A DNA stretch of 64,000 nt, from NCBI GenBank assembly GCA_902618245.1, contig CACMZR010000001.1, positions 213,507 to 277,506 of the forward strand, written 5' to 3'. A program made the translations under genes and the position numbers. A model generated the notes under the pieces. The model made no database searches and was not told the DNA's origin. It saw nothing but the letters and a program-made list of their open reading frames with translations. The stretch is from an uncultured Bacteroidota bacterium (GTDB taxonomy: Bacteria; Bacteroidota; Bacteroidia; Flavobacteriales; Flavobacteriaceae). Positions 18,500-42,100 of the stretch are shown in pieces; position 1 is the stretch's first letter; each line of letters begins with the position of its first letter.

Positions 18500-18500
18500 T

Positions 18501-19913: not shown

Positions 19914-19925
19914 TAATTAAAATAG

Positions 19926-20990
19926 ATGAATATAGTATTAGCATTTTCCATTCTTATCTTGATTGCAATAGCAATCTGGCAGGTGACTAAAATATTTGAA
20001 CTTTCTCAAGGAAAGAAAATATATACTCAAATTGCTGATGACAATGATAATAATTGGAATGGTAAATTGATGTTTGCATTTTTAATTTTTATCTACGGGA
20101 TTACTATTTTTTCTTTTGTTTCGTATGGGGATGTCCTGCTACCTCAGGCAGCTTCTGAACACGGTTCAGATTACGATAATCTAATGTGGGTTTCATTTGC
20201 GATTATCTTTTTTGTTCAAACGATTACACAAGCACTTTTGCATTATTTCTCCTACAAATACCGGGGCGAAAAAGGGAAAAAAGCATTATTTTACGCTGAC
20301 AATGATAAGTTAGAGGCAATTTGGACAATAATCCCGGTAATTGTTTTAGCAGGATTGATTTTAGTTGGCCTCTACACCTGGACAGATATCATGACAGTAG
20401 AAGAAAATGAAGATGCCTTAACAGTAGAGCTTTATGCCCAACAATTCAATTGGAAAGCCCGGTATGCTGGAGACGATGGTGTTTTAGGAGATGCTAACGT
20501 AAGGTTTTTACAAGATTTTGATGGGAAAAATTTGGTTGGAATTGATGCAACAGATCCAAACGGTTTTGATGACGTTGTAGTGCAAGAACTCCACCTCCCC
20601 GTGGGAAGAGAAGTAATCTTCAAAATGAGATCACAAGATGTTTTGCACTCAGCTTACATGCCATTTTTCAGGGCACAAATGAATTGTGTTCCAGGAATGA
20701 TAACTGAATTTGCATTTACACCAAATAAGACGACAGAAGAAATGCGTCAAGATCCTGATATTATTTCCAAAGTAAAAAAAATTAATAAATTAAGAGCAGA
20801 AAAAAGTAAAGAACTAATTTTAAATGGCGATGTCGCTTTAGACCCATATGAATTTGATTTTCTTTTACTTTGTAATAAAATTTGTGGTGCATCGCACTAC
20901 AACATGCAGATGAAAATAATTGTAGAATCAGAAGAAGAATATACCAAATGGATGTCTGAACAGCAGACCTTCGCAGAAGTAATTCAATAA
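19926..20990 (+). CDS. ctaC: Cytochrome c oxidase subunit II (CuA subunit, no fused cytochrome c domain)
   Basis: It has two N-terminal TM helices. The CuA ligands are visible in VLHSAYMP and CNKICGASHYNM. The protein contains no CxxCH motif. Confidence 0.9.
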   Translation: MNIVLAFSILILIAIAIWQVTKIFELSQGKKIYTQIADDNDNNWNGKLMFAFLIFIYGITIFSFVSYGDVLLPQAASEHGSDYDNLMWVSFAIIFFVQTITQALLHYFSYKYRGEKGKKALFYADNDKLEAIWTIIPVIVLAGLILVGLYTWTDIMTVEENEDALTVELYAQQFNWKARYAGDDGVLGDANVRFLQDFDGKNLVGIDATDPNGFDDVVVQELHLPVGREVIFKMRSQDVLHSAYMPFFRAQMNCVPGMITEFAFTPNKTTEEMRQDPDIISKVKKINKLRAEKSKELILNGDVALDPYEFDFLLLCNKICGASHYNMQMKIIVESEEEYTKWMSEQQTFAEVIQ

Positions 20991-21012
20991 TTAAACTAAA
21001 AAAAGTAAAGAT

Positions 21013-22800
21013 ATGTCAATAGCAGTAGCACACACAGAAGAGGATCACGGACATCATCATAAGGAAACATTTGTAACAAAATATATTTTTAGTCAAGATC
21101 ATAAGATGATCTCTAAACAGTATTTAATTACAGGTTTGTTCATGGGTATTATTGGGATAGCAATGTCTCTATTATTTCGTTTGCAATTAGCGTGGCCTGA
21201 ACAACCATTTGGCATTTTTGAAGTTCTACTTGGAAAGTGGGCACCAGACGGGGTAATGGACCCAAATGTTTACCTTGCCCTAGTCACCATTCATGGAACA
21301 ATAATGGTATTTTTTGTCTTAACTGCAGGTCTAAGTGGAACATTTAGTAACCTTTTAATTCCCTTGCAGATTGGAGCTCGTGATATGGCATCAGGATTGT
21401 TGAACATGATTTCTTTCTGGCTTTTCTTCCTCTCGAGTGTAATAATGGTTATGTCACTTTTTGTAGAAGCTGGACCAGCTGCTGCCGGATGGACAATCTA
21501 TCCACCACTTTCTGCTTTACCACAAGCTCAACCTGGTTCAGGTACTGGAATGACGTTATGGTTAGTATCGATGGCAATTTTTATTGCATCTTCTCTTCTA
21601 GGGTCACTGAACTATATAGTTACTGTGATTAATCTTAGAACTAAAGGAATGACTATGACTCGCTTACCTTTGACCATTTGGGCGTTTTTTGTCACTGCAA
21701 TAATTGGTGTTGTTTCCTTTCCAGTTCTTCTTTCAGCTGCTTTACTTTTAATTATGGATAGAAGTTTTGGTACCTCATTTTTCCTTTCAGATATATTTAT
21801 TCAAGGTGAAGTACTCCATTACCAAGGTGGGTCACCAGTTCTTTATGAACATTTATTCTGGTTTTTGGGTCACCCGGAAGTTTACATTGTATTACTTCCA
21901 GCTCTAGGCATAACATCCGAAATTATAGCTACAAACGCAAGAAAGCCAATTTTTGGTTATCGTGCGATGGTTGCGTCAATTTTAGCAATTGCATTTTTAT
22001 CTACCATTGTTTGGGGACACCATATGTTTATTTCGGGAATGAATCCATTTCTTGGATCTGTTTTTACCTTCACTACCTTACTTATAGCCATTCCTTCTGC
22101 TGTTAAGGCTTTTAATTACATTACTACGCTATGGAAGGGAAACCTTCAGTTAAATCCTGCAATGCTTTTTTCCATAGGATTAGTTTCTACTTTTATAACA
22201 GGAGGCTTAACAGGAATTATTTTAGGAGACAGCACTCTTGACATTAATGTACACGATACTTACTTTGTTGTGGCTCACTTTCATTTAGTTATGGGAATTT
22301 CTGCGCTATACGGATTATTTGCTGGGGTTTACCATTGGTTCCCTAAGATGTTTGGACGAATGATGAATAAAAATATGGGTTACTTTCATTTTTGGGTAAC
22401 AGCTATTTGTGCTTATGGTGTATTTTTCCCAATGCACTTTATTGGAATGGCAGGTTTGCCAAGACGTTATTACACTAACACTGCCTTTCCATACTTTGAT
22501 GATCTTGCAGATATAAACGTTTTAATTACAGTCTTTGCCTTAGTTGCTGGTTTTGCTCAACTTGTATTCTTGTATAACTTTATACACAGTATGTTTTATG
22601 GTAAGGAGACAGTTCAAAATCCATGGAGATCAAATACCTTGGAGTGGACAGCACCCATAGAGCATTTTCATGGAAACTGGAAAGGTGAGATCCCTCATGT
22701 ACATCGATGGGCATATGATTATTCAAAACCGGGACATAAAGAAGATTTCATGCCTCAACACATACCACTTCAAAAGGGAGAAGAAGAACTACAACATTAG
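21013..22800 (+). CDS. ctaD: Cytochrome c oxidase subunit I (haem-copper oxidase)
   Basis: 595 aa. Hallmark segments are HGTIMVFF, WFLGHPEVYIVLLPALG, WGHHMF and HDTYFVVAHFHLV. Confidence 0.97.
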   Translation: MSIAVAHTEEDHGHHHKETFVTKYIFSQDHKMISKQYLITGLFMGIIGIAMSLLFRLQLAWPEQPFGIFEVLLGKWAPDGVMDPNVYLALVTIHGTIMVFFVLTAGLSGTFSNLLIPLQIGARDMASGLLNMISFWLFFLSSVIMVMSLFVEAGPAAAGWTIYPPLSALPQAQPGSGTGMTLWLVSMAIFIASSLLGSLNYIVTVINLRTKGMTMTRLPLTIWAFFVTAIIGVVSFPVLLSAALLLIMDRSFGTSFFLSDIFIQGEVLHYQGGSPVLYEHLFWFLGHPEVYIVLLPALGITSEIIATNARKPIFGYRAMVASILAIAFLSTIVWGHHMFISGMNPFLGSVFTFTTLLIAIPSAVKAFNYITTLWKGNLQLNPAMLFSIGLVSTFITGGLTGIILGDSTLDINVHDTYFVVAHFHLVMGISALYGLFAGVYHWFPKMFGRMMNKNMGYFHFWVTAICAYGVFFPMHFIGMAGLPRRYYTNTAFPYFDDLADINVLITVFALVAGFAQLVFLYNFIHSMFYGKETVQNPWRSNTLEWTAPIEHFHGNWKGEIPHVHRWAYDYSKPGHKEDFMPQHIPLQKGEEELQH

Positions 22801-24861: not shown

Positions 24862-25098
24862 CGATTTAAGCTCAAAATATCAAAATCTTGAAATTAAAAC
24901 ACATTATATCATATTTTAGAAACCGTGTAAAAAGTCTGATTGTTTATCAGGAAATATAAATTCTTAAACAAAACCCTTAAAATATATGATATCGTCATTT
25001 TCTTAACAAAATATTAAGAAATTAAAAAAAACATTACTATAATTGTAGGTTGATTAAACGAAATCACAAAGAATTAATTAAAAATAATTTAAAACCAA

Positions 25099-28000
25099 AT
25101 GATGAAAAAAGAGTTCTTTAAGAAATTCTCATTCCTCTTCGCTTTTATGTTGAGTGTGGGAATTTTCGCTCAAACAGTTACGGGAGTCGTAACGAGCGAT
25201 GACGGTCCACTTCCTGGTGCTACTGTACTAGTTCAGGGGACGAATGATTTCGCCACAACTGATTTTGACGGTAACTTTTCAATCGAAGCAGCCCAAGGAG
25301 ATATCCTGATTGTTTCTTTTGTAGGTTATGAGACTCAAGAAGTTGCAGTTGATGGTGATAATTTAACCATAACAATGGCTCTAGGTAATCTATTAGACGA
25401 AGTTGTCGTAACCACTGGTTATGGTACGCAATCTAAAAGAGATATTACAGGAGCAGTATCAACAATAGAAGCTGATGACCTTACAGCAGTTCCTGCGACA
25501 ACATTTTCGCAGCAAATGCAAGGTAGAGCGTCTGGTATTTCTATTGTAAGTGATGCAACACCCGGAGGAGAAGCTACAGTTCGTATCCGTGGTTTCGGAA
25601 CAACTGGAAACAACGAACCACTTTACGTTATTGATGGTGTACCATCTAAGTCTCAAGGTAACCTTAACCCGCAGGATATTGAATCTTTACAAATTCTTAA
25701 AGATGCATCTGCGGCTTCCATTTATGGTTCTCGTGCGGCAAATGGTGTAATCATCATTACAACTAAAAAAGGTAAAGTTGGTTCTCCAACAATCCGTTAC
25801 AGTACATTCTACGGCTGGCAAACTCCAGAGAAGGACGTTGAGGCACTTGATGCGCAAGGTTTAGGTGAGTACCTATATCTTGCTGACTATTATGCAGGTA
25901 AAACTCCATCTCACGGTCAGTACGGATTTAGTGGAACACCAGAAAACCCACAGATTAGTATACCTAACTATGTTTTCCCTAGTGGAGCTAGTTCAGTTGA
26001 CGAATCTCTTTACTCATTAACTCCAGACAATATATACGCGATCACAAGATCAGCAGATACTAACTGGTGGGAGTTATTAACAAATAATAACGCTCCAATT
26101 CTACAACATCAAATAGACGCAAGTGGTGCTAATGAGAACTCTCAATATGCATTTAGTGCTTCTTATTTTAAACAAGATGCTGTTATTAAGTATCAAGGAT
26201 ATGAGAGAGCTACACTTCGTGTAAACTCTTCTACTAAGACATTTGGAGGTAAATTAGAAGTTGGTGAGAACTTATCATTAAACCTTGATAACAGAAAAGG
26301 TGGTTATGGAAACGACGGCGAGCAAAATGCTGTTTCTGGTTCATACAAGCACCACCCACTTCTTCCTAATTATGATATTGCTGGAAACTTTGCTGGTTCT
26401 AGGGGTCTAAACCTTGGTAACAACTTTAACCCTTACGCTTCTCAGTCTAGAAACCAAGACGACAGAGTTAGAAGAGCTAGAATGTTTGGTAATGCTTATG
26501 CACAATTAACAATTGCTGATGATTTCAAATTAAGATCAAGCTTTGGTGCCGACATTACAACAAACAGACGTGTTGACATTGGAAGACCTCAGCCTGAATA
26601 TGTTGAAGGTAACTTTATAAATAGTTCTAGAGCTGAGCAGAATTGGGGATATGAGTGGACATTTACAAATACTCTCTCATGGTCTAAGGTTATTGCTGAT
26701 GTTCACGACATTAGTGCTTATGCTGGTGTTGAGGCGATTCAAGGTTTTTCAGAATACTTCGGTGCTGCAAGAGAAAGATTCCCATTTGAAACTACCTCTA
26801 TTATTAGTTACCTAGATCTTGGTAACCAATCAACTGCTTCAAACTTTGGAAACATCTCTAAAGACTTCTCTTTATGGTCACAGTTTGCACAAGCTAACTA
26901 CCAGTACAACGAGAAATATCTTGCGACAGTGACTGTTCGTAATGACCAATCTTCAAGATTTAGACAAGCTTCTAACAGTGCATTTTTCCCAGCATTTAGT
27001 GTTGGTTGGAGGGTATCTGAAGAAGACTTTATGTCTGGAATATCTTTTATAGATGACCTTAAAGTTAGATACGGATGGGGTAAAACTGGTAACCAAGAAA
27101 TTGGAGACTATAATGCTTATACCACGTTTGGATCTGGTTCATATAACACAGGTTATCCAATTGATGGAAGTAATTCAGCAGCCACTCTAGGTTATGCTCC
27201 TAATACCTTTGGTAATCCAGCAGCAAAATGGGAGGCTACTGTTTCAAATAATATTGGTTTGGATGCAGCATTAGGAGGACAAAAACTATTTGTTGAATTA
27301 GACTTATGGAACAGAACTACTACTGACTTACTTCTTACTGTACCTGTTATTTATTCTGCAGGTGATGCTGGTGCTCCAGCTGTTAACATTGGTGAGATGT
27401 ACAACGAGGGTATTGATTTCGGACTTACATATGATGACAACTTTGGTGATCTTAACTTGTCTATTACAGGTAACATTTCTACTTATAGAAATGAAATACT
27501 TGCTTTAGATGAATTTTCTACACCAATCTTTGGATCTAACAGAAGGGTTCCTGCCTTAACTGTTACTCAAGTTGGTGATCCAATATCTTCACTATATGGT
27601 TTTGAAGTGGAAGGTATCTTCCAATCTCAAGCTGAAGCTGACGCTCACGCACCTTATGGTACAACAGGATATAACGCACCTGGTAAATTCAAGTATGCTG
27701 ATGTAAACAATGATGGTGAGATTAATGATGATGACAGAACTGTTATCGGTAATCCACACCCTGACTTTACATATGGTATAAACTTGAGTTTAACTTATAA
27801 AAATATCAATTTGACTGTCTTTGGAAATGGAGTACAAGGAAACGATATCTACAACTACGTAAGATACTTTGCTGACTTCAACACATTCCAAGGAAACAGA
27901 TCTACAAGAGCACTTAACGATGCTTGGCAACCAAGTAACCCGTCTGCTCCAAGATCTCAATGGACTGCTGCAAACCCCGATGCTACGTCTCCTATTATGG

Positions 28001-28293
28001 ATGCGAACGATCAGATTAGTAGTAGAACTTCTTCTTATTTAATAGAAGACGGTTCATATTTCAGATTGAGAAACGTACAACTTACTTATACATTTAGTGA
28101 CGCATTAAACGATACTCTAGGTATAAGTGGAGGAAACATATATTTCCAAGGTCAAAATCTATTAACTGTCACGAACTATTCTGGTCTAAACCCAGAAATT
28201 CAGACAACTAATGATATTCAATTAGGATACGACGGAGGATTTATGCCGGTTTCACGAACACTGACTGTAGGATTGAATCTATCATTATTTTAA
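25099..28293 (+). CDS. SusC/RagA-family TonB-dependent outer-membrane transporter
   Basis: 1064 aa. It has a signal peptide, a carboxypeptidase-regulatory-like domain (VTGVVTSDDGPLPGATVLVQGT) and plug segments QSKRDITGAVSTI and VRIRGFGTTGNNEPLYVIDGVP. There is no STN (anti-sigma signalling) domain. It sits directly upstream of a SusD gene. Confidence 0.95.
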   Translation: MMKKEFFKKFSFLFAFMLSVGIFAQTVTGVVTSDDGPLPGATVLVQGTNDFATTDFDGNFSIEAAQGDILIVSFVGYETQEVAVDGDNLTITMALGNLLDEVVVTTGYGTQSKRDITGAVSTIEADDLTAVPATTFSQQMQGRASGISIVSDATPGGEATVRIRGFGTTGNNEPLYVIDGVPSKSQGNLNPQDIESLQILKDASAASIYGSRAANGVIIITTKKGKVGSPTIRYSTFYGWQTPEKDVEALDAQGLGEYLYLADYYAGKTPSHGQYGFSGTPENPQISIPNYVFPSGASSVDESLYSLTPDNIYAITRSADTNWWELLTNNNAPILQHQIDASGANENSQYAFSASYFKQDAVIKYQGYERATLRVNSSTKTFGGKLEVGENLSLNLDNRKGGYGNDGEQNAVSGSYKHHPLLPNYDIAGNFAGSRGLNLGNNFNPYASQSRNQDDRVRRARMFGNAYAQLTIADDFKLRSSFGADITTNRRVDIGRPQPEYVEGNFINSSRAEQNWGYEWTFTNTLSWSKVIADVHDISAYAGVEAIQGFSEYFGAARERFPFETTSIISYLDLGNQSTASNFGNISKDFSLWSQFAQANYQYNEKYLATVTVRNDQSSRFRQASNSAFFPAFSVGWRVSEEDFMSGISFIDDLKVRYGWGKTGNQEIGDYNAYTTFGSGSYNTGYPIDGSNSAATLGYAPNTFGNPAAKWEATVSNNIGLDAALGGQKLFVELDLWNRTTTDLLLTVPVIYSAGDAGAPAVNIGEMYNEGIDFGLTYDDNFGDLNLSITGNISTYRNEILALDEFSTPIFGSNRRVPALTVTQVGDPISSLYGFEVEGIFQSQAEADAHAPYGTTGYNAPGKFKYADVNNDGEINDDDRTVIGNPHPDFTYGINLSLTYKNINLTVFGNGVQGNDIYNYVRYFADFNTFQGNRSTRALNDAWQPSNPSAPRSQWTAANPDATSPIMDANDQISSRTSSYLIEDGSYFRLRNVQLTYTFSDALNDTLGISGGNIYFQGQNLLTVTNYSGLNPEIQTTNDIQLGYDGGFMPVSRTLTVGLNLSLF

Positions 28294-28312
28294 TAATTAA
28301 TTATTTTGTAAA

Positions 28313-30046
28313 ATGAAAAATTTGAAAAATCTATTTTTTGCTTCACTAGCCATTGTAACTCTTACAGTTGCTTGTGATGAAGAATTTTTAACAAAAGAAC
28401 CCCAGGCTTCACTTTCTGGACCAGCATTAGCTAATGCAGATGGTGTTGAAGGGAAACTTGTCGCTGCTTACCGTACCCTTGCAGGTTACGGAATGAGTGG
28501 AGGAGGAACATGGTATTATTCTACCTGGTCCTGGATTTTTGGTGCAATATCTTCTGATAATGCATTAAAAGGAACTGATGCTGGTGACCAGCCAGAGCAC
28601 TCATTTATTGAGTCATATGACTTTAACACTTTTAATGTTCACAACCGCGATAAGTGGAGATCTGGATACTGGGGTGTTGCTAGAGCTAATGACGTTATAA
28701 ATAGTGTAGCAGAAGCTGAAGACATAAGTGCGGCTAGAGCTGCAGAGATTGTCGGTGAAGCTAAATTCATTAGAGGGTGGCAACACTTTGAAATGCAGAA
28801 AATGTATAGAACTCCTAAGTATGTTAGTGAAGCTAACTTTACTTTAGATGATCTAGAAGCTTCAAAAGTTCCTAATACAGGAAAGATTTGGGCTAACATT
28901 ATCCAAGACTTTGCGGATGCTGCAACTGCTCTTCCAGCTACTCAATCAGAGGCAGGTAGAGCTACTAAATGGGCTGCATTAGCTTATCAAGCTAAAGCAT
29001 TAGTCTATAGTGGTGACTATACTTCTGCACTTCCAATTTTGGAGAATATTGTTAACAACGGACCATTTACACTTGTCGACAAATTTGAAGACAACTATTT
29101 GGTAGCTACTAGAAACAATTCAGAATCTATTTTTGAAATTCAGTATGCTGTTAGTAGTGCTGACACAAATGCATCTAATGCTGAAATTGGTCTTGCACAT
29201 CCATATATTGCTCCATGGGGATGCTGTGGTTTCTTACAAGCACCTCAGGACTTAGTTGACTTTTTCCAAACCGACGCTAATGGACTACCATTATTAGACG
29301 AATCTTGGAAAACTAATCATATCACTAATCCTACAGGAGCTAATATAGGAGAGCCTATTGGTGACCCTAGAGTTGATCCAAGACTTGACCACACTGTTGG
29401 TCGTCCAGGACAACTGTTCAAGAATCACCACATCATGCAAGTTGACTACATTCGTGATTTAACTTATGCAGGTCCATATTTTTCTAAAAAGCACATTGCT
29501 GAGCCAGAAGGATTTGGTATTGGTGGATGGGGTAACCTTTCTGCAAACAACTTTAGAATTATGCGTTTAGGACACGTTAAGCTTTGGTTAGCTGAAGCTT
29601 ATGTTGAAGCTGGACGTCTAGAAGACGCTCGTGCCCAAATAAATGACCTAAGAAGACGTGCTGCTAACCCAGACGGCTTTAATAAAGGTGCAATTCAGGG
29701 TGCAACGCGTGCAGATTACACTTTAACAGGAGCACCTGGTGCTAACTATGTTATTGGTGAGTATACTGCACCTTGGACAGATCAAGCTATTGCGAGAAGA
29801 GCCGTGCGTTATGAGTCTAGACTTGAAACTGCAATGGAAGGAAATCGTTTCTTTGATTTGCAAAGATGGGGTGTTCAATCTCAAGTTCTTAACGAATATC
29901 TATCTAGAGAATCACGTTACAGAATTTACCTTCAAGGTAAGTCCTTTACATCACCAAAAAATGAATTCTATCCAATTCCAACTTATGCAATTGATAGATC
30001 ATTCTCAGAAGGTGAGCCGACTTTAACACAAGATCCTAACTACTAG
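28313..30046 (+). CDS. SusD/RagB-family outer-membrane lipoprotein
   Basis: 577 aa. The lipobox is TVAC followed by DEEFLTKEPQ, and the C-terminal signature is GNRFFDLQRWG. Confidence 0.93.
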   Translation: MKNLKNLFFASLAIVTLTVACDEEFLTKEPQASLSGPALANADGVEGKLVAAYRTLAGYGMSGGGTWYYSTWSWIFGAISSDNALKGTDAGDQPEHSFIESYDFNTFNVHNRDKWRSGYWGVARANDVINSVAEAEDISAARAAEIVGEAKFIRGWQHFEMQKMYRTPKYVSEANFTLDDLEASKVPNTGKIWANIIQDFADAATALPATQSEAGRATKWAALAYQAKALVYSGDYTSALPILENIVNNGPFTLVDKFEDNYLVATRNNSESIFEIQYAVSSADTNASNAEIGLAHPYIAPWGCCGFLQAPQDLVDFFQTDANGLPLLDESWKTNHITNPTGANIGEPIGDPRVDPRLDHTVGRPGQLFKNHHIMQVDYIRDLTYAGPYFSKKHIAEPEGFGIGGWGNLSANNFRIMRLGHVKLWLAEAYVEAGRLEDARAQINDLRRRAANPDGFNKGAIQGATRADYTLTGAPGANYVIGEYTAPWTDQAIARRAVRYESRLETAMEGNRFFDLQRWGVQSQVLNEYLSRESRYRIYLQGKSFTSPKNEFYPIPTYAIDRSFSEGEPTLTQDPNY

Positions 30047-30070
30047 TAGTTAAATCTTTGAAAGTTCAAA

Positions 30071-30104
30071 ACCGTGGAGTATATTTGCTCCGCGGTTTTT
30101 TTTT
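30071..30104 (+). terminator. Rho-independent terminator between susD and the downstream lipoprotein gene
   Basis: ACCGTGGAG (30071-30079), an 8-nt loop, then CTCCGCGGT (30088-30096). This forms a 9-bp stem with one G:U pair. A 9-T tract follows, and the next ATG is at 30110. Confidence 0.75.
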
Positions 30105-30109
30105 GATAT

Positions 30110-33100
30110 ATGATGAAAGGGAAATATTTATTAATCACACTAATTTTTTTAATCCAGTCCTGTTCAAAACAAAATAAGTTATTTGTTTTATTGAAATCAG
30201 AAAAAACAGGTATTGAATTCAACAATAAAATAACTGAAACAGATGATTTTAATATACTTACGGATGAGTATATTTTTAATGGAGGAGGAGTTGCACTAGC
30301 TGACTTTAATAGGGACGGTCTACCAGATTTATTTTTTACCGGTAATATGGTATCAAATGAGCTTTATTTGAATAAAGGTCATTTAAAGTTTGAGAATGTG
30401 ACTAATAGTGCAAAATTAAATTCAACTGGATTTTGGTCAACAGGAGCAGCAGTTGTAGATATAAATTCAGATGGTTGGATGGATATTTACGTTTCCGGAG
30501 CCATGAATACAAATAATAGAAAAAATAGACTTTATGTAAATCAGGGACTAAATAAAGAAAACATCCCTGTTTTCGAAGAACAAGCTGAGAAATTTGGAAT
30601 TGATGATAATGGTAATACCATGGGAGCATGTTTCATTGATTATGATAAAGATGGCGATTTAGATTTATATGTTCTAAACAATGAACAAAACGAGACTATC
30701 CCAACTAACTACAGAAAAAAAATAATTGATGGATCAGCACCTAGTAATGACAAATTTTATAAGAATAACGGAGATGGGACTTTTAGTGATATAACTCTTG
30801 ACGCAGGGATATTATTTGAAGGCTTTGGTTTAAGTGTTACGCCAGTTGACATAAATAAAGACCAATGGATCGATCTATATATAACTAATGATTATCTAAC
30901 TAATGATCTTTTGTATGTAAATCAAAAAAATGGAACATTTAAAAATGAAATCCAAAACTACCTGTCTCATCAAAGTAAATTTTCTATGGGCTCAGATGCC
31001 TCAGATTTTAATAATGACGGCTATACTGATTTAATTTCCCTCGATATGCTAGGCGAAAGCCATGAGCGCAGAAAAACGACCATATCTAAAAGTTTTTTTT
31101 TCCAAAACGTATTGAACAAAAAATGGGACTATCAAGACCAGCATATGCGAAATATGCTTTTTAAAAATAATGGACCAAATCTTCCATTTTCAGAAATAGG
31201 ACAATTTTCAGGGGTTTACCAAACAGATTGGAGTTGGTCACCACTTTTTGCTGACTTTGACTATGATGGAAATAGAGATTTGTTTATAACTAATGGATTC
31301 CCAAGAGATATAACTGATATGGACTTTGCAAATTACAGGCTTAGCTATGGTGCTTACACTCCGGTATCAACTCTTTTGGATTCAATACCTATTGTTAAAA
31401 TACCTAATTATGCATACAAGAATAATGGTAACCTGACCTTTGAAGATGTAAGTAAAAAGTGGGGCTTAGGTATTTCCTCGTTTTCTAACGGAGCTGTTTT
31501 TAGTGATCTTGATTTAGATGGAGATATAGACTACGTTGTAAATAATATAAATGATAAAGCATTTATTTTTGAAAATATTTTATCCCAACAAGAAAATCCT
31601 CCAAACTATTTACAAATTGAGCTTGAAGGAGATAAATTAAATCCAGATGCTCTAGGAGCAAAAGTTGTTTTGCGCCTCTCGGATAATTCAATTCAATTTC
31701 AAGAGCAACAAATATCACGAGGTTATATGTCTTCTGCCGATCCTGTAATGTATTTTGGACTTGGAAAACTTAAAGATGTAGTATCTGTAGAAATTTTGTG
31801 GCCAAACGGACTTTTATCGAAAATAGATAACCCTGATATTAATAAAAGACTAACATTAAGTCAAAGTGAAGCGTTAGCTGTTAATTCTCTTATTTTTCCT
31901 TTTGTGAAAGAACAAAAACTTCTTCCTTATAAAGAGGTTTCTAGTAAATACAACATAAATTATTTTCATAACGAAAAAAACGTTCAAGACTTTTTTAAAC
32001 AGCGTTTATTACCACACAAATTGTCCCAAAATGGCCCGTGCATTGCAGTAGGTGATATTAATAGTGACGGCAATGAAGATTTTATAGTAGGTAGTTCATC
32101 ATCATTTTCACCTAGGGTTTTTATACAAAGTGGCGACAGTAAATTCGCTTCGAGGGATTTATTTCAAAAAGAGCAAGAAAAAAAATATGAAGTTGAAAGT
32201 ATGACTCTTTTTGATGCAGACCAAGATGGAGATCTTGACCTTTATCTTGTTTCCGGTGGTAACGAATATGATATTGGCTCTGAGTGGTACCAAGATAGAT
32301 TGTTAATTAACGATGGCCTTGGAAATTTTAAAAATCAACAAAACAGACTTCCTAAGATGCACGTTAATGGTTGCATTGTTAGACCAGCTGATTTTGATAA
32401 TGATGGAGATTTGGATTTGTTTGTTGGTGGACACAACAAACCTGGAGCTTATCCACTAGCTGAAAATAATTTTCTATTAAGAAATAATAACGGTTTTTTT
32501 GAAGATGTTACGGATATCACTATTCCTTCATTAGATTCGTTTGGTATTCTAACAGATGCTTTATGGACTGATATAAATGGCGATAAGCGAAATGACATAA
32601 TTCTTGTAGGTGAATATAGCCCTGTTACAATATTGTTAAATAATGAAAAAGGTTTTAAAAAATTGGAATCAGAAACTCTAGAGGATACTCAGGGTCTTTG
32701 GAGGGCGATTGAGCAGGTTGACATTGACCAAGACGGAGATTTAGATTATATTTTAGGAAATTTAGGAAAAAATAATATGCTGTCTCTATCTCCAGAAACC
32801 CCAATGTATATATCAACTAAGGATGTAGATAAAAACGGTAGTGTTGATCCCTTAATTTTTAATTCCCAACAAAACAGCAAGGGCGAATTAGATATTTATC
32901 CAATTCAATTTTGGGATAATCTAACCCAACAAAGTCCAATATTTAGGCAAGAATTCAATTCTTATCATTCATTTTCAAAAGCTAACTTTGAATATTACAA
33001 AGAAAAAGGATTCATAGATAATGACAGTATTTTGATAGCTAAACACAGTGAATCCAAATGGATTGAAAACTTGGGTGAAGGTAATTATCAACTTAATTCA

Positions 33101-33409
33101 TTACCAGATTTACTCCAGTTAGGCCCCATTAATGATTTTCTTATTTTTGGCGCTGGTAATAAACGTAAAGTATTTGTCGTAGGGAATGATTTTGGGGGTG
33201 CGCCATTTGAAGGGAATACGGACGCATTACAAGGGACCATTTTATATTTAGATGAAAATGAAGATGAGAAAGTTGTAAGCGCGCAAGATTCAGGTTTTAA
33301 TGTTTTTGGTGATGCTAGAGAGATTAAAAGTGTAAGGCTTAAGAATGGTAAAATTTTGATTTTGGTAGCTCAAAATCAAAACAAACTGCTAGCATTTGAA
33401 GAGTTTTAG
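30110..33409 (+). CDS. Lipoprotein with two FG-GAP/VCBS repeat blocks flanking an UnbV/ASPIC domain (CRTAC1-like family)
   Basis: 1099 aa with lipobox LIQSC. Calcium-type repeats are DINSDGWMDIYV, DYDKDGDLDLYV, DFNNDGYTDLISL, DFDYDGNRDLFITNG and DLDLDGDIDYVVNN. The UnbV-like core is ALGAKVVLRL followed by SRGYMSSADPVMYFGLG. A second block has DINSDGNEDFIVG, DADQDGDLDLYLVSGG, DFDNDGDLDLFVGG and DIDQDGDLDYILGN. Confidence 0.8.
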   Translation: MMKGKYLLITLIFLIQSCSKQNKLFVLLKSEKTGIEFNNKITETDDFNILTDEYIFNGGGVALADFNRDGLPDLFFTGNMVSNELYLNKGHLKFENVTNSAKLNSTGFWSTGAAVVDINSDGWMDIYVSGAMNTNNRKNRLYVNQGLNKENIPVFEEQAEKFGIDDNGNTMGACFIDYDKDGDLDLYVLNNEQNETIPTNYRKKIIDGSAPSNDKFYKNNGDGTFSDITLDAGILFEGFGLSVTPVDINKDQWIDLYITNDYLTNDLLYVNQKNGTFKNEIQNYLSHQSKFSMGSDASDFNNDGYTDLISLDMLGESHERRKTTISKSFFFQNVLNKKWDYQDQHMRNMLFKNNGPNLPFSEIGQFSGVYQTDWSWSPLFADFDYDGNRDLFITNGFPRDITDMDFANYRLSYGAYTPVSTLLDSIPIVKIPNYAYKNNGNLTFEDVSKKWGLGISSFSNGAVFSDLDLDGDIDYVVNNINDKAFIFENILSQQENPPNYLQIELEGDKLNPDALGAKVVLRLSDNSIQFQEQQISRGYMSSADPVMYFGLGKLKDVVSVEILWPNGLLSKIDNPDINKRLTLSQSEALAVNSLIFPFVKEQKLLPYKEVSSKYNINYFHNEKNVQDFFKQRLLPHKLSQNGPCIAVGDINSDGNEDFIVGSSSSFSPRVFIQSGDSKFASRDLFQKEQEKKYEVESMTLFDADQDGDLDLYLVSGGNEYDIGSEWYQDRLLINDGLGNFKNQQNRLPKMHVNGCIVRPADFDNDGDLDLFVGGHNKPGAYPLAENNFLLRNNNGFFEDVTDITIPSLDSFGILTDALWTDINGDKRNDIILVGEYSPVTILLNNEKGFKKLESETLEDTQGLWRAIEQVDIDQDGDLDYILGNLGKNNMLSLSPETPMYISTKDVDKNGSVDPLIFNSQQNSKGELDIYPIQFWDNLTQQSPIFRQEFNSYHSFSKANFEYYKEKGFIDNDSILIAKHSESKWIENLGEGNYQLNSLPDLLQLGPINDFLIFGAGNKRKVFVVGNDFGGAPFEGNTDALQGTILYLDENEDEKVVSAQDSGFNVFGDAREIKSVRLKNGKILILVAQNQNKLLAFEEF

Positions 33410-33510
33410 TTTTTAGGGCCTAAAAAATATCATTTCATTATTACATATTCAATTTATTTGACTTAAATGTCCTATTTTTAACTTGCTAAAATGTGTTGAA
33501 AACTGAATTT

Positions 33511-33518
33511 TACTTTTG
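33511..33518 (+). promoter_or_regulatory. Candidate internal -7 box (TACTTTTG) upstream of the PAP2/haloperoxidase-like gene
   Basis: This is an exact TAnnTTTG match 30 nt upstream of the ATG at 33549. The ORF-track TTG start at 33516 lies inside it. Confidence 0.3.
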
Positions 33519-33548
33519 ATCGTTTTCATTGGTTGTTTTAAATTCAGT

Positions 33549-34940
33549 ATGAATAAATGTATGAGGAATCTTAGAGCTTTAATATTTTCAGTCTTATTTG
33601 TCCAATTATCATGTAATCAACATGAAAGTAGGGAATATATTCAAAAATTAGATAATCCTGAATTATTCCAATCTGTAATGCAAAACCTTACGGACATTGT
33701 AGTTTACGACATCTTTTCACCACCTGTTGCTTCAAGAGTCTACTTATATCCAACAATAGCTGCATATGAGATAATCGCTGCGCATCAGCCTGAAAGCTTC
33801 AACAGTCTTGCAGGCCAGGTCAAAGATTTGAATGAAATTCCAAAATCAGATAATAAGGCTATAATTCCAAACCTTGCTGCTCTATTTTCTTTTAATAGTG
33901 TTGGCAAAAAACTTATTTTTTCACAAGATAAAATGGAATCCTTTGAAAATGAATTTTATCAAAAATTAATTGACTATAATGTTCCAAAAAAAGTAATAAA
34001 AGCTTCTAAAAATTATGGAGAAGAAGTAGCAGAATTTATTCTAGAATGGGCTTCTAAAGATATGTATAGCCAAACCCGTACATTTCCAAAATATGCTATC
34101 AAAGAAGAAGATAAGTATTGGAAGCCAACTCCACCTGATTATATGGATGGAATTGAACCTCATTGGCAAGAAATTAGAACTATGGTTTTAGATTCGTCAA
34201 ACCAATTTCCCCCAAAAGACCCTTTACCATTTGATTTAGAAAAAGATAGTCCTTTCCATAAACAGTTGATGGAGGTTTTTAACGTTATAAATCGACTTAC
34301 TGATGAACAAGTAGAAATAGCAAAATTTTGGGATTGCAATCCATATGTAACACATCACAAAGGACATTCTATGTTTGCTACAAAAAAGATTACACCAGGA
34401 GGTCATTGGATTGGAATAACTTCTATAGCCACTAGAAAAGCAAAAAGTTCTTTTGCAGATACAATAAATGCATATGCTAATGTTTCTATTGCTTTGTTTG
34501 ACGCATTTATAAGCTGTTGGGATGAAAAATGGAGAACTTTGGTAGTTCGGCCAGAGACATTAATTAATGAACATTACGATGAGGAATGGCTACCATTATT
34601 ACAAACCCCTCCATTCCCAGAATATACAAGTGGACACTCCGTAATTTCAAGAGCTGCTGCAGTAACCTTAACAAAAATTTACGGAGATAATTTCAGTTTT
34701 GTAGATACTACAGAAATAGCTTATGGTCTTCCTGAAAGAAGCTATACGTCTTTTATACATGCTTCTGAAGAGGCAGCGATATCAAGACTGTACGGAGGTA
34801 TACATTACATGATGGCAATTACTGAGGGTGTTTCTCAGGGCCAAAAAGTAGGTTCATATATTGCTAGCAGATTAAAAACAAAAAAAACTTCTGACAGGTT
34901 ATTAACTCTAAATACAACAACTGGTGAAAAAAAGCCTTAG
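33549..34940 (+). CDS. PAP2-superfamily lipoprotein resembling vanadium-dependent haloperoxidase / acid phosphatase
   Basis: The signal and lipobox are MNKCMRNLRALIFSVLFVQLSC. All three PAP2/vanadate-site motifs are present: KWRTLVVRP (Kx6RP), YTSGHS (SGH) and SRLYGGIHY (SRx5H). I moved the start to an ATG. Confidence 0.7.
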   Translation: MNKCMRNLRALIFSVLFVQLSCNQHESREYIQKLDNPELFQSVMQNLTDIVVYDIFSPPVASRVYLYPTIAAYEIIAAHQPESFNSLAGQVKDLNEIPKSDNKAIIPNLAALFSFNSVGKKLIFSQDKMESFENEFYQKLIDYNVPKKVIKASKNYGEEVAEFILEWASKDMYSQTRTFPKYAIKEEDKYWKPTPPDYMDGIEPHWQEIRTMVLDSSNQFPPKDPLPFDLEKDSPFHKQLMEVFNVINRLTDEQVEIAKFWDCNPYVTHHKGHSMFATKKITPGGHWIGITSIATRKAKSSFADTINAYANVSIALFDAFISCWDEKWRTLVVRPETLINEHYDEEWLPLLQTPPFPEYTSGHSVISRAAAVTLTKIYGDNFSFVDTTEIAYGLPERSYTSFIHASEEAAISRLYGGIHYMMAITEGVSQGQKVGSYIASRLKTKKTSDRLLTLNTTTGEKKP

Positions 34941-36288
34941 TTTTTGGCAGATAATCACCATGAACTTTGGTTTTTTCGGGGTGCAATTTAGCTTTGGTTT
35001 GCAGCAAAGCAATATGAGTGCAATTTATAGGTATCTAGGTGCCGAAGAATCTGAGTTACCTGTTTTATGGCTAGCAGGTCCAGTTACCGGTCTTATTGTT
35101 CAGCCAATAATTGGAGCAATTAGTGATGGAACCTGGTCACCGAGATTTGGCAGAAGAAAGCCTTTCTTTCTAATTGGAGCAATAATTGCAAGTTTAACTT
35201 TAATTGCTATGCCTTACTCTAGTTCAATTTGGATGGCTGCCGGCCTTTTATGGATTTTAGATGCTGCAAATAATATTGCTTTGGAACCTTATAGGGCATT
35301 TATTTCTGATAAATTACCAAAAAAACAATTTTCATTTGGTTTTTTAGTACAAAGCTTTTTTACTGGTCTAGGAACTACATTAGCCAATTTCACACCTGCT
35401 ATCTTGGTTTCCTTTGGCATATTAGCGTTAACCGATAAAATGGAAAATGGGATTCCTGTTTCAACTTATTGGGCTTTTATGGTTGGTGCTGCGGCATCCA
35501 TTATAACTATTTTGATTACGGTCATTACTACCTCGGAATATCCACCTACGTTAGGAGAGTTAAAAGAAATTCAATCCTCCAAAACAAATAAAAATCTATT
35601 AATAAAAACTTTCCAAGATATTATTTTTGCATTCAGAGACATGCCTGCAACTATGAAACAATTAATACCAGTCATGTTTTTCCCTTGGTATGCAATGTTT
35701 TGCTATTGGCAATATTTAACTTCAGCTCTTTCACTCTCCTTATATGGTACTCTAGACGAAACAACATCATTTTTCAACAAGGCGCAACTTTTGACAGGAA
35801 ATCTAAATGGTACTTATAATATTATTTGTTTTTTAATTGCCTTTGCACTGATACCAATTGCAAAAAAAATTGGACCCAAAAGATTACACTTTTTTAGCTT
35901 AGCTATTGGAGGATTTGGTCTTTTATGCATGCCGTTACTAAATGATACAGACATTTTATTTGTTTTGCCCTTTGGAAGCGGTATTGAAATTTCTCAAATA
36001 TATCTTTTTTCCTTCTGTATGGGTATTACCTGGGCATCCATGATGGCTATGCCTTATCAAATGTTAGCATCAACTATTCCAATAAATAAAATGGGAATTT
36101 ATATGGGTATATTCAATATGTTTATCGTTATCCCAATGATTATTCAAATTTTTTCTGTTCAGTATATAATTTATGATCTTTTAGGACAAAATCCAATAAA
36201 TATTATACGCCTATCGGGTGCCTTTCTTATTACAGGAGGAATTTTTTCTTTATTTGTTAGCCAACCTGCAAAGGCAGATTCAATTTAA
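34924..36288 (+). CDS. MFS transporter of the SLC45 / glycoside-pentoside-hexuronide-like sugar:H+ symporter type
   Basis: 454 aa, about 12 TM helices. The N-terminal segments are LSFWQI, FGFFGVQFSFGLQQSNMS and RFGRRKPFFLIGA. The GTG start overlaps the upstream stop by 17 nt. Confidence 0.75.
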   Translation: MKKSLSFWQIITMNFGFFGVQFSFGLQQSNMSAIYRYLGAEESELPVLWLAGPVTGLIVQPIIGAISDGTWSPRFGRRKPFFLIGAIIASLTLIAMPYSSSIWMAAGLLWILDAANNIALEPYRAFISDKLPKKQFSFGFLVQSFFTGLGTTLANFTPAILVSFGILALTDKMENGIPVSTYWAFMVGAAASIITILITVITTSEYPPTLGELKEIQSSKTNKNLLIKTFQDIIFAFRDMPATMKQLIPVMFFPWYAMFCYWQYLTSALSLSLYGTLDETTSFFNKAQLLTGNLNGTYNIICFLIAFALIPIAKKIGPKRLHFFSLAIGGFGLLCMPLLNDTDILFVLPFGSGIEISQIYLFSFCMGITWASMMAMPYQMLASTIPINKMGIYMGIFNMFIVIPMIIQIFSVQYIIYDLLGQNPINIIRLSGAFLITGGIFSLFVSQPAKADSI

Positions 36289-39181: not shown

Positions 39182-42100
39182 TTGATTGAAATATCTGAAA
39201 ATGTAGTTTTTAAACCATCCAAAAACTTCATCATCATTTTTATCTTGATGATGCTAGTTAGTAAAATTGTTTTTGGACAAAAAGCTCCTGAAATAGGTTC
39301 CATTATTGAACCAAAGTCAAGTAGTATTGAAACCTTATACACCTATGACCCTGAAAGTAATCTCTATATTCTAACTGAGGAAATAGGAGGCTATCCTATT
39401 AGCACCCCAATGGTAATGACTGTTGCTGAATATGAGTCATTTATTCTAAAAGAACAAATGAGTAAGTATTTTAGAGAAAAAATTCAAGCACTTAGTGGAT
39501 ACGGATCAGATATTGAAGATGCACAAAAAAATTTACTTCCAGAACTTTATGTAAATAATGAGTTTTTTGAATCAATTTTTGGGAGTAATACCATTGATAT
39601 TAAACCTCAAGGTTCGATAGGAGTGGATTTAGGATACCGATACCAAAGAAGTGATAATCCTATTGCGTCAGTAATTAACCGTAGATCACCGGGTTTCGAT
39701 TTTGACCAGAGAATAAGTTTAAGTTTATTAGGAAATATTGGTGAACGCCTTCAAATTACAGCTAATTATGATACCGAATCTACTTTTGATTTTCAAAACT
39801 TGGTAAAAATAGAATTTAACCCTCCCAAATTATCGGAATTAACAGAAATAATTCCAGGTAAATTAGGTTCAAATATTTCAACTATAAATGAAGCTGTTAA
39901 CGAGATAAGTCAAACAATTGGTGACACAGAAGAAACTATAAGTGAATCAGAAAATTCATTAAATAAAGTAAGACAAAAAATTGATAATCTTAAAAATAAT
40001 GTAAAACAGCTTCCTAACAATCCAGAGCTTGTAGGAAACAGGGTATCAGAATACTTAAGAGGTAAAATAACAGAAGATGCTATTATTCAAAATATAGATA
40101 TTGGGAATGTCAATATGCCAATAAATAGTAATCTAATACAAGGTGCACAAAGTTTATTTGGTGTACGTACAGATTTAAAATTTGGAAATACAACTATATC
40201 CGGAGTATTTTCAGAACAAAGATCTCAATCACAAAATATAGTTTCCCAAGGAGGAGGAAGATTACAAGAGTTCAACTTTTTTGCTTTAGACTACGAGGAA
40301 GATCGACATTTTTTCATTAGTCAATATTTTAGAGATAATTATGATCTATTTTTAGCTAATTATCCATACATTAATTCTCCAGTACAAATTACTCGTATAG
40401 AGGTTTGGGTTACAAATAGGGGGTATCAAACTCAAAATGTAAGAAACATAATAGCGCTTCAAGACTTGGGAGAACCTAACCCTGATAATACTAAATTAGA
40501 TGATAATTATCAGGGTTTTATAAATTCTTCAAATCCTTTTGCCCCGCCTGATAACAGTGTAAATAAACTTGATCCAGACGAAATTGGTTTTAGCAGTGTA
40601 CTCAACACAAAAATTAGGGACATTGCAACAGTTAACAATGCTTTTGAAAATATTAATGCAAATGAGGGATTTGATTATGCAGTATTAGAAAGTGCAAGAA
40701 AACTTAGTCCTCAAGAATATACATTCCACCCTCAATTAGGATATATATCTCTTAATCAGCGTCTAAGTAATGATGAAGTTTTAGGAGTTGCTTTTCAATT
40801 TACTCATTTGGGGAAGACATATCAGGTTGGAGAATTTGCTAATGGAGATATTCCAGGTACCTCAGTAATTCAACAAAATCAAAATTTTATTCAAGGGCAA
40901 GGTCAACAGGAACAAGTTCAAACAAATAGCTTAATTGTCAAAATGTTAAAAAGTAGTTTGACTGATGTTCGCCAGCCAGTTTGGGATTTGATGATGAAAA
41001 ATATTTATAATACAGGAGCATTTCAACTTTCCGAGGAGGATTTTCGATTAAATATTTTGTATAGTGATCCATCACCAATTAATTATTTAACTCCAGTTGA
41101 TAAATCCATATGGCCAGAAGATTTAGATAATGAAATATTATTAAACACATTGGAACTCGATAAACTAAATGCATATCAAGATTTAGTACCTAGTGGAGAC
41201 GGATTTTTTGATTTTCTTCCTGGTATTACTATTGAACCTCGTTTTGGAAGAATAATCTTTACTAAAGTTGAGCCATTTGGAGAATTTTTATTTGAGATTT
41301 TAGATAATCCAAGTTCAGCGAAAGAGAATTATGACATAAATAATACGTTTAATGCAAATCAAAAAAAATATGTTTTTAAGGAAATGTATACTCTTACAAA
41401 AGCAGCTGCTTTAGAATTTACCGAAAAAAATAAATTCCAACTCAAAGGAAGATATAAGTCTGAAGGAGGTGATGGTATAAATATAGGAGCTTTTAATATC
41501 CCAAGAGGTTCTGTTAGAGTTACAGCAGGAGGAAGAATTCTTCAGGAAGGATTGGATTATACAGTAAATTATGAAATAGGAAGGGTAAAAATATTAGATG
41601 AAGGTCTTAAAGCATCAAATATTCCAATCGATATTTCAGTTGAAAATAATTCGTTTTTTAATCAACAGAATAAAAGATTCTCTGGAATTAATTTGAAACA
41701 TCGACTAACTGATAATTTCTATGTTGGAGGAACACTTATAAATCTGAGTGAAAATCCTCTTACTCAAAAAGCAAATTATGGAACCGAACCAGTAAATAAT
41801 ACAATGAAAGGCTTAAATACAAATTTTTCTACTGAACTTCCCTTTTTAACTCGTTTGGTTAATAAGTGGCCAACTATAAGGACTAGTATTCCTTCTCAAA
41901 TTTCATTTAGAGGTGAAATTGCAAGCATTAATGCAAATGATCCTCGAAATACAAGATTAAATGGCGAGACAAACGTTTATATAGATGATTTTGAAGGGGC
42001 ACAAACAAATATTGATGTAAAAGGATTTAATGCATGGAACCTTTCTAGTGTCCCTATTAAAGGAGTTTTAGGATCATCGCTACAGGGACTCGAAAGTGGT

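Follow-up and report, generated by a model that had tools for sequence, protein, structure and literature searches.

Complex organic matter enters Bacteroidota mainly by way of SusCD loci, and the loci that lack carbohydrate-active enzymes (CAZymes) are mostly unexplained. One such locus lies in the window analyzed here, a stretch of 64,000 nucleotides (nt) from an uncultured Flavobacteriaceae bacterium (contig CACMZR010000001.1), and it raises the question of whether its genes serve one pathway or several. Five co-directional open reading frames (ORFs), reported by a sequence-only reading of the window, were confirmed on the + strand: susC (25099-28293, 1064 aa), a SusC/RagA-type TonB-dependent outer-membrane transporter without STN domain; susD (28313-30046, 577 aa), the surface lipoprotein that is the lid of the transporter; the gene of a CRTAC1-like FG-GAP/UnbV lipoprotein (30110-33409, 1099 aa); that of a vanadium haloperoxidase lipoprotein of the Zg-VIPO1 type (33549-34940, 463 aa from its ATG, the ORF opening at TTG 33516); and that of an inner-membrane transporter of the major facilitator superfamily (MFS), SUC/SLC45 (GPH-sucrose) type (34924-36288, 454 aa, GTG start). 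Pfam and NCBIfam agreed with the family calls of that reading, including the FG-GAP blocks around UnbV/ASPIC. The SusCD locus as such is of a known kind; its accessory set is unusual and conserved, and its components are individually annotated, with one of them characterised. The answer that we favour, with a confidence that stops a little short of even, is that this is a composite locus, made up of semi-independent modules in one slot, and that their linkage reflects shared ecology or regulation. The layout would be susCD, a terminator, the FG-GAP/UnbV gene and then a haloperoxidase-MFS pair, all in the queG-maeB slot of a streamlined marine flavobacterium.

The co-directional run is far longer than five genes, so that co-directionality alone does not delimit the locus. 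Upstream there is housekeeping content (alternative complex III, cytochrome oxidase (cox), ruvB and queG), and the same holds downstream (maeB, ruvA and sprA). The limits were set by comparison with relatives, because only the queG-maeB segment varies among them: the frame cox-ruvB-queG-slot-maeB-ruvA-sprA is conserved, and the content of the slot differs. The full set of five genes was found in the relatives L004, L008, L009 and L012; SusCD, FG-GAP and haloperoxidase genes without the MFS gene in L013 and L025; the haloperoxidase and MFS genes only in L011; and the haloperoxidase gene only in L001-3, L006-7, L010 and L014. In L001 and L003, SusC residues 10-267 (84% identity) abut FG-GAP residues 1022-1098, which indicates that one deletion took the barrel, SusD and most of the FG-GAP protein. 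The haloperoxidase is full-length in both, and the MFS protein is reduced to residues 388-448 (61 codons). Between two strains of this lineage the haloperoxidase gene showed 6 nucleotide differences, 6/6 of them synonymous, a 90-codon MFS remnant showed 11, of which 9 were amino-acid changing (dN/dS ~1.3), and maeB had a dN/dS of 0.06. The all-synonymous changes, small as their number is, indicate that the haloperoxidase has been kept by selection without its neighbours. Its variant in the L001/L003 lineage is indexed in 198 assembly-collection blocks, which argues for an abundant lineage. The pseudogene relics themselves lie at 8876-9850 and 11447-11629 in L001 and likewise in L003; a further relic, at 960-1616 in L049, holds FG-GAP residues 881-1098 only.

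The second line of evidence comes from the susD/FG-GAP junction, where an intrinsic-terminator-like hairpin with a 14-bp stem and a T-run lies at 30068-30099 on the + strand (folding energy -22.2 kcal/mol). In 13 of 14 related loci susD is followed by an equivalent hairpin whose stem sequence is unrelated, and elsewhere hairpins were found at 1/10 susC-susD and 3/17 haloperoxidase-MFS junctions. That the structure is conserved and the sequence is not speaks for a genuine terminator or attenuator by which susCD is set apart. Together with the haloperoxidase that is kept alone under purifying selection, it weakens the assumption of the sequence-only reading that the five genes form one pathway. 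The hairpin loop (30080-30087) holds TATATTTG, a match to the Bacteroidetes -7 box that stands 30 nt before the FG-GAP start codon and is kept in L004, L008, L009 and L012, so that this single predicted element might both end susCD transcripts and begin FG-GAP transcripts.

A third line is the affinity of the FG-GAP/UnbV protein. None of its six nearest cultured homologues (~50% identity) has a haloperoxidase gene within 10 kb (6/6), and 5/6 stand in SusC-SusD-FG-GAP triads. The window protein is ~50% identical to these homologues from haloperoxidase-less triads versus 33-36% to those of haloperoxidase-linked triple arrays (L015-L073). Since it is nearer to the triads, the cluster may combine a triad-type module with a haloperoxidase-MFS pair.

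The sequence-only reading had left the fourth protein between a PAP2 phosphatase and a haloperoxidase. Its ORF spans 33516-34940, and from the probable true start, ATG 33549, it begins with a signal peptide that ends in the lipobox VQLSC (MNKCMRNLRALIFSVLFVQLSC). The top match in the Protein Data Bank (PDB) was Zg-VIPO1 of Zobellia galactanivorans (4CIT/4USZ; E 1.9e-151, query 20-454 to chain 13-448), and the identity to 4CIT is 54% over the full length. All of the PDB matches at E <= 1 (10/10) were vanadium haloperoxidases, the nine besides the top one being weak, and no phosphatase was among them. K327, R334, S361-G362-H363, R413 and H419 are invariant in the window protein, 4CIT and six aligned homologues, and Y266, C323, W324 and F356 likewise, so that the vanadate site is as complete as had been noticed. 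In this family the Lys, Arg, Ser-Gly-His and Arg coordinate vanadate, and the His is the covalent ligand. The PAP2 domain of Pfam also matched (7.2e-09), and the motifs K-x6-RP, (P)SGH and SR-x5-H are present; PAP2 phosphatases and haloperoxidases share the K-x6-RP, SGH and R-x5-H site, and these motifs therefore do not discriminate between the two families. The ambiguity was settled by the 54% identity to Zg-VIPO1 and the intact site: in a review table (PMC8407142) Zg-VIPO1/4CIT is entered as a monomer that binds vanadate, and iodide is the one halide given for it.

The two proteins are alike in size (~450 aa), in a lipoprotein-type N-terminus and in the vanadate-binding residues, and the gene of Zg-VIPO1 also lies 3′ of FG-GAP/UnbV genes on the same strand. 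The protein P0241 of Zobellia sp. OII3, identical to 4CIT over the 436 residues queried, is encoded 8 nt 3′ of three tandem FG-GAP/UnbV genes, and the characterised Zg-VIPO1 thus belongs to this cluster type. Zobellia differs from the window by having three FG-GAP/UnbV paralogues in tandem and a GyrI-like membrane protein 3′ of the enzyme gene, where the window has the MFS gene; it also differs in that the activity of Zg-VIPO1 has been measured, whereas that of the window enzyme is predicted from its sequence. The sequence-only reading knew of no functional study. For the cluster this stands, since our literature search found nothing on a SusCD-FG-GAP/UnbV-haloperoxidase association, although a prior mention, e.g., in the Zobellia genome paper, is possible; for the enzyme it does not, as Zg-VIPO1 was reportedly purified and crystallised, by Fournier et al. 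in 2014. Homologues of the haloperoxidase number > 8000 at E < 1e-20, mainly in marine metagenomes and in metagenome-assembled genomes (MAGs) of Flavobacteriaceae.

In the FG-GAP/UnbV protein, which carries the lipobox LIQSC, the Pfam family FG-GAP_3 matched ten times (E 3.3e-66), on both sides of a single UnbV_ASPIC domain at residues 514-582 (E 1.2e-17, 64 bits against a cutoff of 23.4). A profile of 34 sequences retrieved only CRTAC1 (5e-22) and integrin-alpha propellers from the PDB. The AlphaFold2 model (pLDDT 79.2, pTM 0.75) had one meaningful Foldseek match, murine CRTAC1 (9ETN_A, E 1.5e-24, target TM 0.71), which aligned in 574 columns at 18% identity and covered only the N-terminal half of the window protein. 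The remaining matches were generic multi-propeller alignments (TM 0.15-0.3, rmsd >= 25 A), and the structure 6P2K of glycoside hydrolase (GH) family 74, at TM 0.21-0.29 and rmsd ~26 A, behaved as these generic scaffolds did. The likeness to CRTAC1/ASPIC (9ETN) and to bacterial UnbV proteins lies in the order of FG-GAP Ca2+-type propeller repeats followed by UnbV_ASPIC; the window protein differs in having roughly double the length and a further propeller block behind UnbV/ASPIC, and in being a bacterial lipoprotein of a SusCD locus. A CAZyme or lyase hidden in this protein, which the sequence-only reading had named among the discoveries that would overturn it, was rejected as a candidate, because Pfam, NCBIfam, the PDB profile and Foldseek gave only CRTAC1/integrin-type propellers; beta-propeller polysaccharide lyases and hydrolases (e.g., PL11 and GH74) gave no significant profile or fold match. 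Nor did Pfam, the PDB profile or Foldseek detect an oxidase-like domain or fold. The ~8000 homologues bear source names such as 'VCBS repeat-containing', 'ASPIC/UnbV domain-containing' and 'enediyne biosynthesis protein E4', and to our knowledge no biochemical activity has been assigned to CRTAC1 or UnbV. The place of the gene directly after susD and the lipoprotein signal of its product suggest that the protein resembles surface glycan-binding proteins in role, and it would most likely be a Ca2+-dependent, non-catalytic capture protein.

SusC has the Pfam domains CarbopepD_reg_2, Plug and TonB_dep_Rec_b-barrel, scored 794 bits against TIGR04056 (cutoff 368.25) and carries the signature TIGR04057 (65 bits, cutoff 46.2); an STN domain was matched by neither Pfam nor NCBIfam. 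The susD gene begins 19 nt 3′ of the susC stop, and its product has the domains SusD_RagB (5.4e-32) and SusD-like_3 and a lipobox TVAC followed by the acidic export signal DEEF. The nearest solved SusC was the levan importer Bt1763 (5T3R, E 5.7e-157, 527 bits; compare 443 bits for a second SusC homologue, the dextran transporter 8AA4, and 293 for RagA), and SusD aligned over its full length with Bt1762 (E 8.5e-53, 183 bits). The levan polysaccharide utilization locus (PUL) Bt1754-65 thus resembles the window in its SusCD pair, Bt1762-63, in a lipoprotein gene after susD and in an inner-membrane MFS transporter, and levan import by its SusCD is TonB-dependent and follows a 'pedal-bin' mechanism. 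The window differs from that PUL in lacking GH32, any other CAZyme and a hybrid two-component sensor, in the CRTAC1-like propeller that forms its post-susD lipoprotein, and in the added haloperoxidase. A levan or fructan specificity was considered and rejected. Only 4/8 fructo-oligosaccharide contacts of SusD are identical (D67, C298, C299 and R368); a fifth is changed conservatively (Y395 to W) and three are lost (D41 to S, N43 to T and W85 to V), so that the stacking Trp85 is replaced by Val. Pfam found no GH32 domain in the window. With contacts partly lost and GH32 absent, a fructan substrate should not be read from this likeness.

The transporter gene begins with a GTG that overlaps the haloperoxidase stop by 17 nt, an overlap that had been noticed before and that is real; the N-terminus from this GTG is kept in relatives. 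MFS_1 of Pfam matched its product at 2e-21. The nearest solved relatives were the sucrose symporter SUC1 (8BB6, 1.1e-16, nearly full length) and SLC45A4 (1e-5), and the score against TIGR01301 (GPH_sucrose) was 99.5 bits, under the cutoff of 511. This makes the protein a distant SUC/SLC45 relative to which substrate specificity cannot be transferred.

From these parts the composite locus can be pictured as follows. Module 1, susC-susD, would be a TonB-powered outer-membrane importer, closed by the conserved terminator or attenuator. Module 2 would be the FG-GAP/UnbV lipoprotein, which, at the usual place of a surface-binding protein, might hand a substrate to SusCD; this substrate would probably be sugar-containing and derived from algae or phytoplankton. 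Module 3 would be the iodoperoxidase lipoprotein and a sugar:H+ symporter of the SUC/SLC45 type, coupled in translation. The enzyme would turn H2O2 and iodide into hypoiodous acid at the cell envelope, as is known for Zg-VIPO1, and may act in peroxide removal, iodine uptake or both, independently of SusCD; the symporter would carry a small sugar or glycoside over the inner membrane. The linkage of the modules would then stem from a common setting (algal exudates, H2O2 and iodide) or from regulation and not from an obligate single pathway, and the missing CAZyme and regulator would be a secondary reduction; in larger genomes this cluster type comes with AraC-type regulators and GH37, GH13 or GH92 genes.

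The main rival retains the idea of the sequence-only reading of an oxidative or halogenating attack with sugar import. It holds that the iodoperoxidase, with H2O2 and iodide, oxidatively modifies or cleaves a substrate bound by the propeller (algal phenolic, glycosidic or matrix material), that the fragments enter via SusCD and that the released sugar passes via the SLC45-type symporter. Evidence for it, as for the composite locus, comes from recurrence. A scan of one genome per species gave at least 597 loci with haloperoxidase relatives, of which the best 80 (52-98% identical) were analyzed with 10-kb flanks, their ORFs being annotated with iterated profiles of the window proteins. They span Flavobacteriaceae, Cyclobacteriaceae, Flammeovirgaceae, Marinoscillum, Saprospiraceae and Lewinellaceae. 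An FG-GAP/UnbV gene lies within 10 kb of the haloperoxidase gene in 52 of these 80 species loci, and in 37 of 67 evaluable loci it lies directly 5′ on the same strand, with one copy in 10 loci, two in 6 and three in 21. SusC/D stands just 5′ of the first FG-GAP gene in 10/11 evaluable loci, the 10-kb flank ending before SusCD in triple arrays; the sequence-only reading had mentioned this pairing of VCBS/CRTAC1-like and haloperoxidase-like genes by SusCD elsewhere, and rightly so. The same-strand adjacency recurs in Flavobacteriales, Cytophagales and Saprospirales. Other arrangements were divergent (L034, L076 and L087), had the haloperoxidase first (L021, L031 and L084) or had two haloperoxidases (L080), and this variation argues against a simply inherited gene order.

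Several points weigh against the composite locus. Hairpins were found at only 9/100 junctions between an FG-GAP gene and the next gene, including those to haloperoxidase genes, and terminator-free junctions together with recurrence in three orders indicate a tighter link than shared ecology would give. The capture role of the FG-GAP/UnbV protein is deduced from position, lipoprotein signal and the failure to match an enzyme-like fold. Its N-terminus (C-SKQNK) has no acidic surface-export patch such as SusD has, which makes its topology uncertain, and the protein may face the periplasm; the family name 'enediyne biosynthesis protein E4' makes a catalytic role possible. The activity of the window enzyme, which we infer to be a vanadium iodoperoxidase, is carried over at 54% identity, and the proposed peroxide removal or iodine uptake draws by analogy on Zobellia and on Arenibacter sp. 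C-21, described below. The 17-nt overlap of the haloperoxidase and MFS genes and the 8-nt spacing in Zobellia likewise speak for an integrated oxidative foraging, as does the sugar transporter or trehalase gene that lies directly downstream in 24/61 loci. We nevertheless hold such foraging to be unlikely. The haloperoxidase is kept alone after deletion of SusCD, FG-GAP and MFS, 28/80 loci show no FG-GAP gene within 10 kb, the nearest FG-GAP homologues stand in haloperoxidase-less triads, and a conserved terminator parts susCD from the rest. Furthermore, hypoiodous acid is a mild, diffusible oxidant, and no vanadium iodoperoxidase is known to us to cleave glycans.

The genes around the haloperoxidase in relatives were identified by clustering the unannotated ORFs of the 80 loci and checking them with Pfam. 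In 11 loci a GH37 trehalase gene (E 6.5e-138) begins no more than ~100 nt after the haloperoxidase stop, and 4 others have it at a greater distance downstream; SSF sodium:solute symporters were found nearby in 17 loci, FGGY kinases in 15, GH13 in 9 and GlpD-like oxidoreductases in 8. Immediately 3′ of the haloperoxidase (61 evaluable loci) stands an SLC45-like MFS gene in 10, GH37 in 9, SSF in 3 and FGGY in 2, so that the constant downstream theme is the uptake or cleavage of small sugars. The typical order in Cytophagales is (susCD)-FG-GAP x2-3-haloperoxidase-GH37-SSF-FGGY-GlpD-GH13; the operon GH37/SSF/FGGY/GlpD/GH13 extends from +1.3 to +10 kb after the haloperoxidase in L027, L038, L040, L044 and L046, and its gene families suggest the catabolism of a small alpha-glucoside or a glycosyl-glycerol compatible solute. 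No GH, lyase, esterase, sulfatase, peptidase, sensor or regulator domain was found in the five window proteins (Pfam E <= 0.01, NCBIfam 0.001), and no hybrid two-component, SusR, AraC, LacI or ECF/anti-sigma domain between queG and maeB, so that for the window the absence of CAZyme, regulator and STN noticed earlier stood. With GH37 and GH13 near the haloperoxidase in relatives, and the GH92 gene described below, 'CAZyme-less' is true of the window and not of the cluster type; the same applies to 'regulator-less', given the AraC-type regulators described below.

Two further proteins accompany these loci and are absent from the window. One is a ~200-aa lipoprotein with zero Pfam match, whose gene always stands between FG-GAP/UnbV genes one and two of triple arrays, in 24 loci (2821-3423 in L022). 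The other is a GyrI-like membrane protein of ~300 aa that adjoins the haloperoxidase in 7 loci including Zobellia (L091 11360-12259; L039 9096-9992; L006 9111-9971): it lies 3′ of Zobellia VIPO1 and 5′ in L019, L039, L040 and L061, and a distant homologue is present in the reduced loci L006 and L007. With only 7 loci and no copy in the window, it was rejected as a core member.

A broader proposal is that SusCD-(FG-GAP/UnbV)n-iodoperoxidase is a conserved Bacteroidota-wide system, in which propellers and iodoperoxidase would modify an algal substrate before import or couple sugar-dependent iodine acquisition; we find this rather doubtful. Iodine acquisition has also been considered in its own right. 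Here sugar-dependent H2O2 and the iodoperoxidase would turn iodide into hypoiodous acid for uptake, as proposed for Arenibacter sp. C-21, and the Ca2+ and glucose dependence of that strain would go back to a Ca2+-binding FG-GAP/UnbV protein and a sugar transporter. Iodine uptake by C-21 is described as needing glucose, O2 and Ca2+ or external H2O2 and is attributed to a haloperoxidase, and five Zg-VIPO homologues are described in its genome (Amachi et al. 2007, as given in PMC5064120, for the uptake). C-21 is thus a marine flavobacterium with Zg-VIPO homologues for which a sugar- and Ca2+-dependent haloperoxidase mechanism has been proposed; no genes are assigned there and neither SusCD nor FG-GAP/UnbV is implicated, which makes the comparison one of analogy only. 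Zobellia has likewise been described as accumulating iodine, in an account that credits its vIPOs, and in the window locus an iodoperoxidase stands with a propeller of Ca2+ type and a sugar symporter. Against this, the FG-GAP/UnbV protein has no oxidase-like domain or fold, membrane-permeant hypoiodous acid needs no SusCD importer, and these genes are tied to 'Ca2+ and glucose' by circumstance only. We also know of no benefit of iodine accumulation to a streamlined planktonic cell, and we consider this explanation improbable.

We give equally little credence to the view that the SusCD/FG-GAP module and the haloperoxidase/MFS pair are unrelated and share nothing but a permissive insertion slot. 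Either module is indeed found without the other, and the window FG-GAP protein stands nearer to the haloperoxidase-less triads. However, several FG-GAP/UnbV subfamilies lie by a haloperoxidase, in 52/80 loci, three orders and varied arrangements, which is far above chance adjacency.

The closest precedent for the remaining rival is PusCD of Flavobacterium (Lidbury et al. 2021, PMC8115612), which resembles the window in a SusCD-like pair that comes without CAZymes and together with periplasmic enzymes of non-glycosidic type and transporters of the inner membrane; the enzymes of Pus loci are PhoA-type phosphomonoesterases, phosphodiesterases and phosphonate enzymes, and PAP2, VCBS or FG-GAP proteins and haloperoxidases find no mention in that paper. 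Organophosphate scavenging, in which the PAP2-fold lipoprotein would be an acid phosphatase acting on a SusCD-imported phosphorylated glycoside whose dephosphorylated sugar enters via the MFS transporter, is the less supported of the two readings offered earlier and very improbable: in its favour are the PAP2 domain with its site motifs, the downstream sugar transporters and hydrolases and the existence of phosphorus SusCD systems, but the nearest characterised relative is a vanadate-bound iodoperoxidase, which makes this the weaker option, the Pus analogy fails, and neither the locus nor its flanks hold a Pho-related gene (no PhoA-, PhoD-, PafA- or phosphodiesterase-type domain in the locus by Pfam).

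Some further signals were detected around the promoters. A perfect palindrome, TTCTTAA-N7-TTAAGAA, lies at 25000-25020 on the + strand, 77 nt 5′ of susC, and has one occurrence in the window, where chance would give 0.15. It has the same position in L004, L008 and L009, within a conserved intergenic block, and has decayed in L001 and L003, whose susC is reduced to a stump; we treat it only as a lead, a possible operator of a regulator whose gene lies elsewhere. A susC-upstream operator common to distant loci was rejected, the palindrome being confined to close relatives. A sigma-70-like promoter, TTAAGA-18-TATAAT (25014-25043, + strand, 10/12 positions in a consensus scan), overlaps its right arm; such matches were as frequent in shuffled sequence as in the window, and little weight is therefore put on it. 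A search of the intergenic regions for the Bacteroidetes -7 consensus TAnnTTTG gave none 5′ of susC. Besides the box in the hairpin loop it gave TACTTTTG as a single match, at 33511-33518 on the + strand, 38 nt 5′ of the haloperoxidase ATG; we regard it as a candidate promoter box, which would fit the modular layout.

AraC-type regulators (HTH_18, some with TPR_MalT) flank FG-GAP/UnbV loci in Muricauda, Zeaxanthinibacter, Flagellimonas and Maribacter. Among the loci of the six nearest cultured homologues, a convergent TPR_MalT+HTH_18 regulator was found at three triads and an upstream AraC-type regulator at two loci. The TPR_MalT+HTH_18 protein of ~610 aa is encoded on the minus strand in cultured Flavobacteriaceae (L090 13564-15411, L092 12205-14067 and L093 13638-15464), and the palindrome AAATTCATGAATTT 5′ of susC is common to L090 and L092; the two are a candidate regulator/operator pair of the SusCD-FG-GAP module. 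In Flagellimonas a gene of the GH92 alpha-mannosidase family lies 3′ of the haloperoxidase-less triad (L092 9826-12177). The triads of Algoriphagus and Indibacter (L089 14368-17622; L094 14916-18847) are followed by Asparaginase_2, a glycosylasparaginase-type family, by CutC and by a shorter FG-GAP protein. There are hints here of N-glycan- or mannose-type substrates for the haloperoxidase-less triad subfamily.

As for the surroundings of the locus, the window has a G+C content of ~33%, and its proteins are 97-99% identical to those of a contig of the single-cell genome 'Bacteroidetes bacterium SCGC AAA795-G10'. The Bacteroidota/flavobacterial-type loci L012 (NYTF01000049.1) and L042 (PBTY01000003.1) come from MAGs labelled Rhodobacteraceae and Rickettsiales, and these labels are probably binning errors. 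Directly 3′ of ruvA, a 2470-aa ORF (39182-46594) is the counterpart of a SprA_N-containing gene in relatives, and we interpret it as SprA, the translocon of type IX secretion. Beyond the variable slot, 11 kb downstream, a protein with a TonB C-terminal domain (47124-47834) is a possible candidate for the energiser of SusC. A long co-directional respiratory block (11593-22800) lies 5′ of ruvB and contains a multihaem cytochrome c, alternative-complex-III genes (homologous to NrfD and ActD in relatives) and cytochrome c oxidase subunits; a 470-aa ORF within it (18501-19913) had zero Pfam or NCBIfam match.

If the genes were to form a cooperating system, glycan foraging by abundant marine flavobacteria would be tied directly to marine iodine redox cycling, and a first biochemical role would be given to the CRTAC1/UnbV family. 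Because one of the non-CAZyme partners resembles a known vanadium iodoperoxidase, the locus offers an experimental handle on the CRTAC1/UnbV propellers, and marine metagenomes hold thousands of homologues of either family. The FG-GAP/UnbV-VIPO1 arrangement is present in Zobellia, a genus open to genetic manipulation (a knockout mutant has been reported, PMC8490876), so that these hypotheses are directly testable. That an abundant planktonic lineage keeps the iodoperoxidase alone suggests that flavobacterial iodide oxidation or peroxide removal may be widespread, and a widespread flavobacterial iodide oxidation would bear on who turns over iodine in surface seawater.

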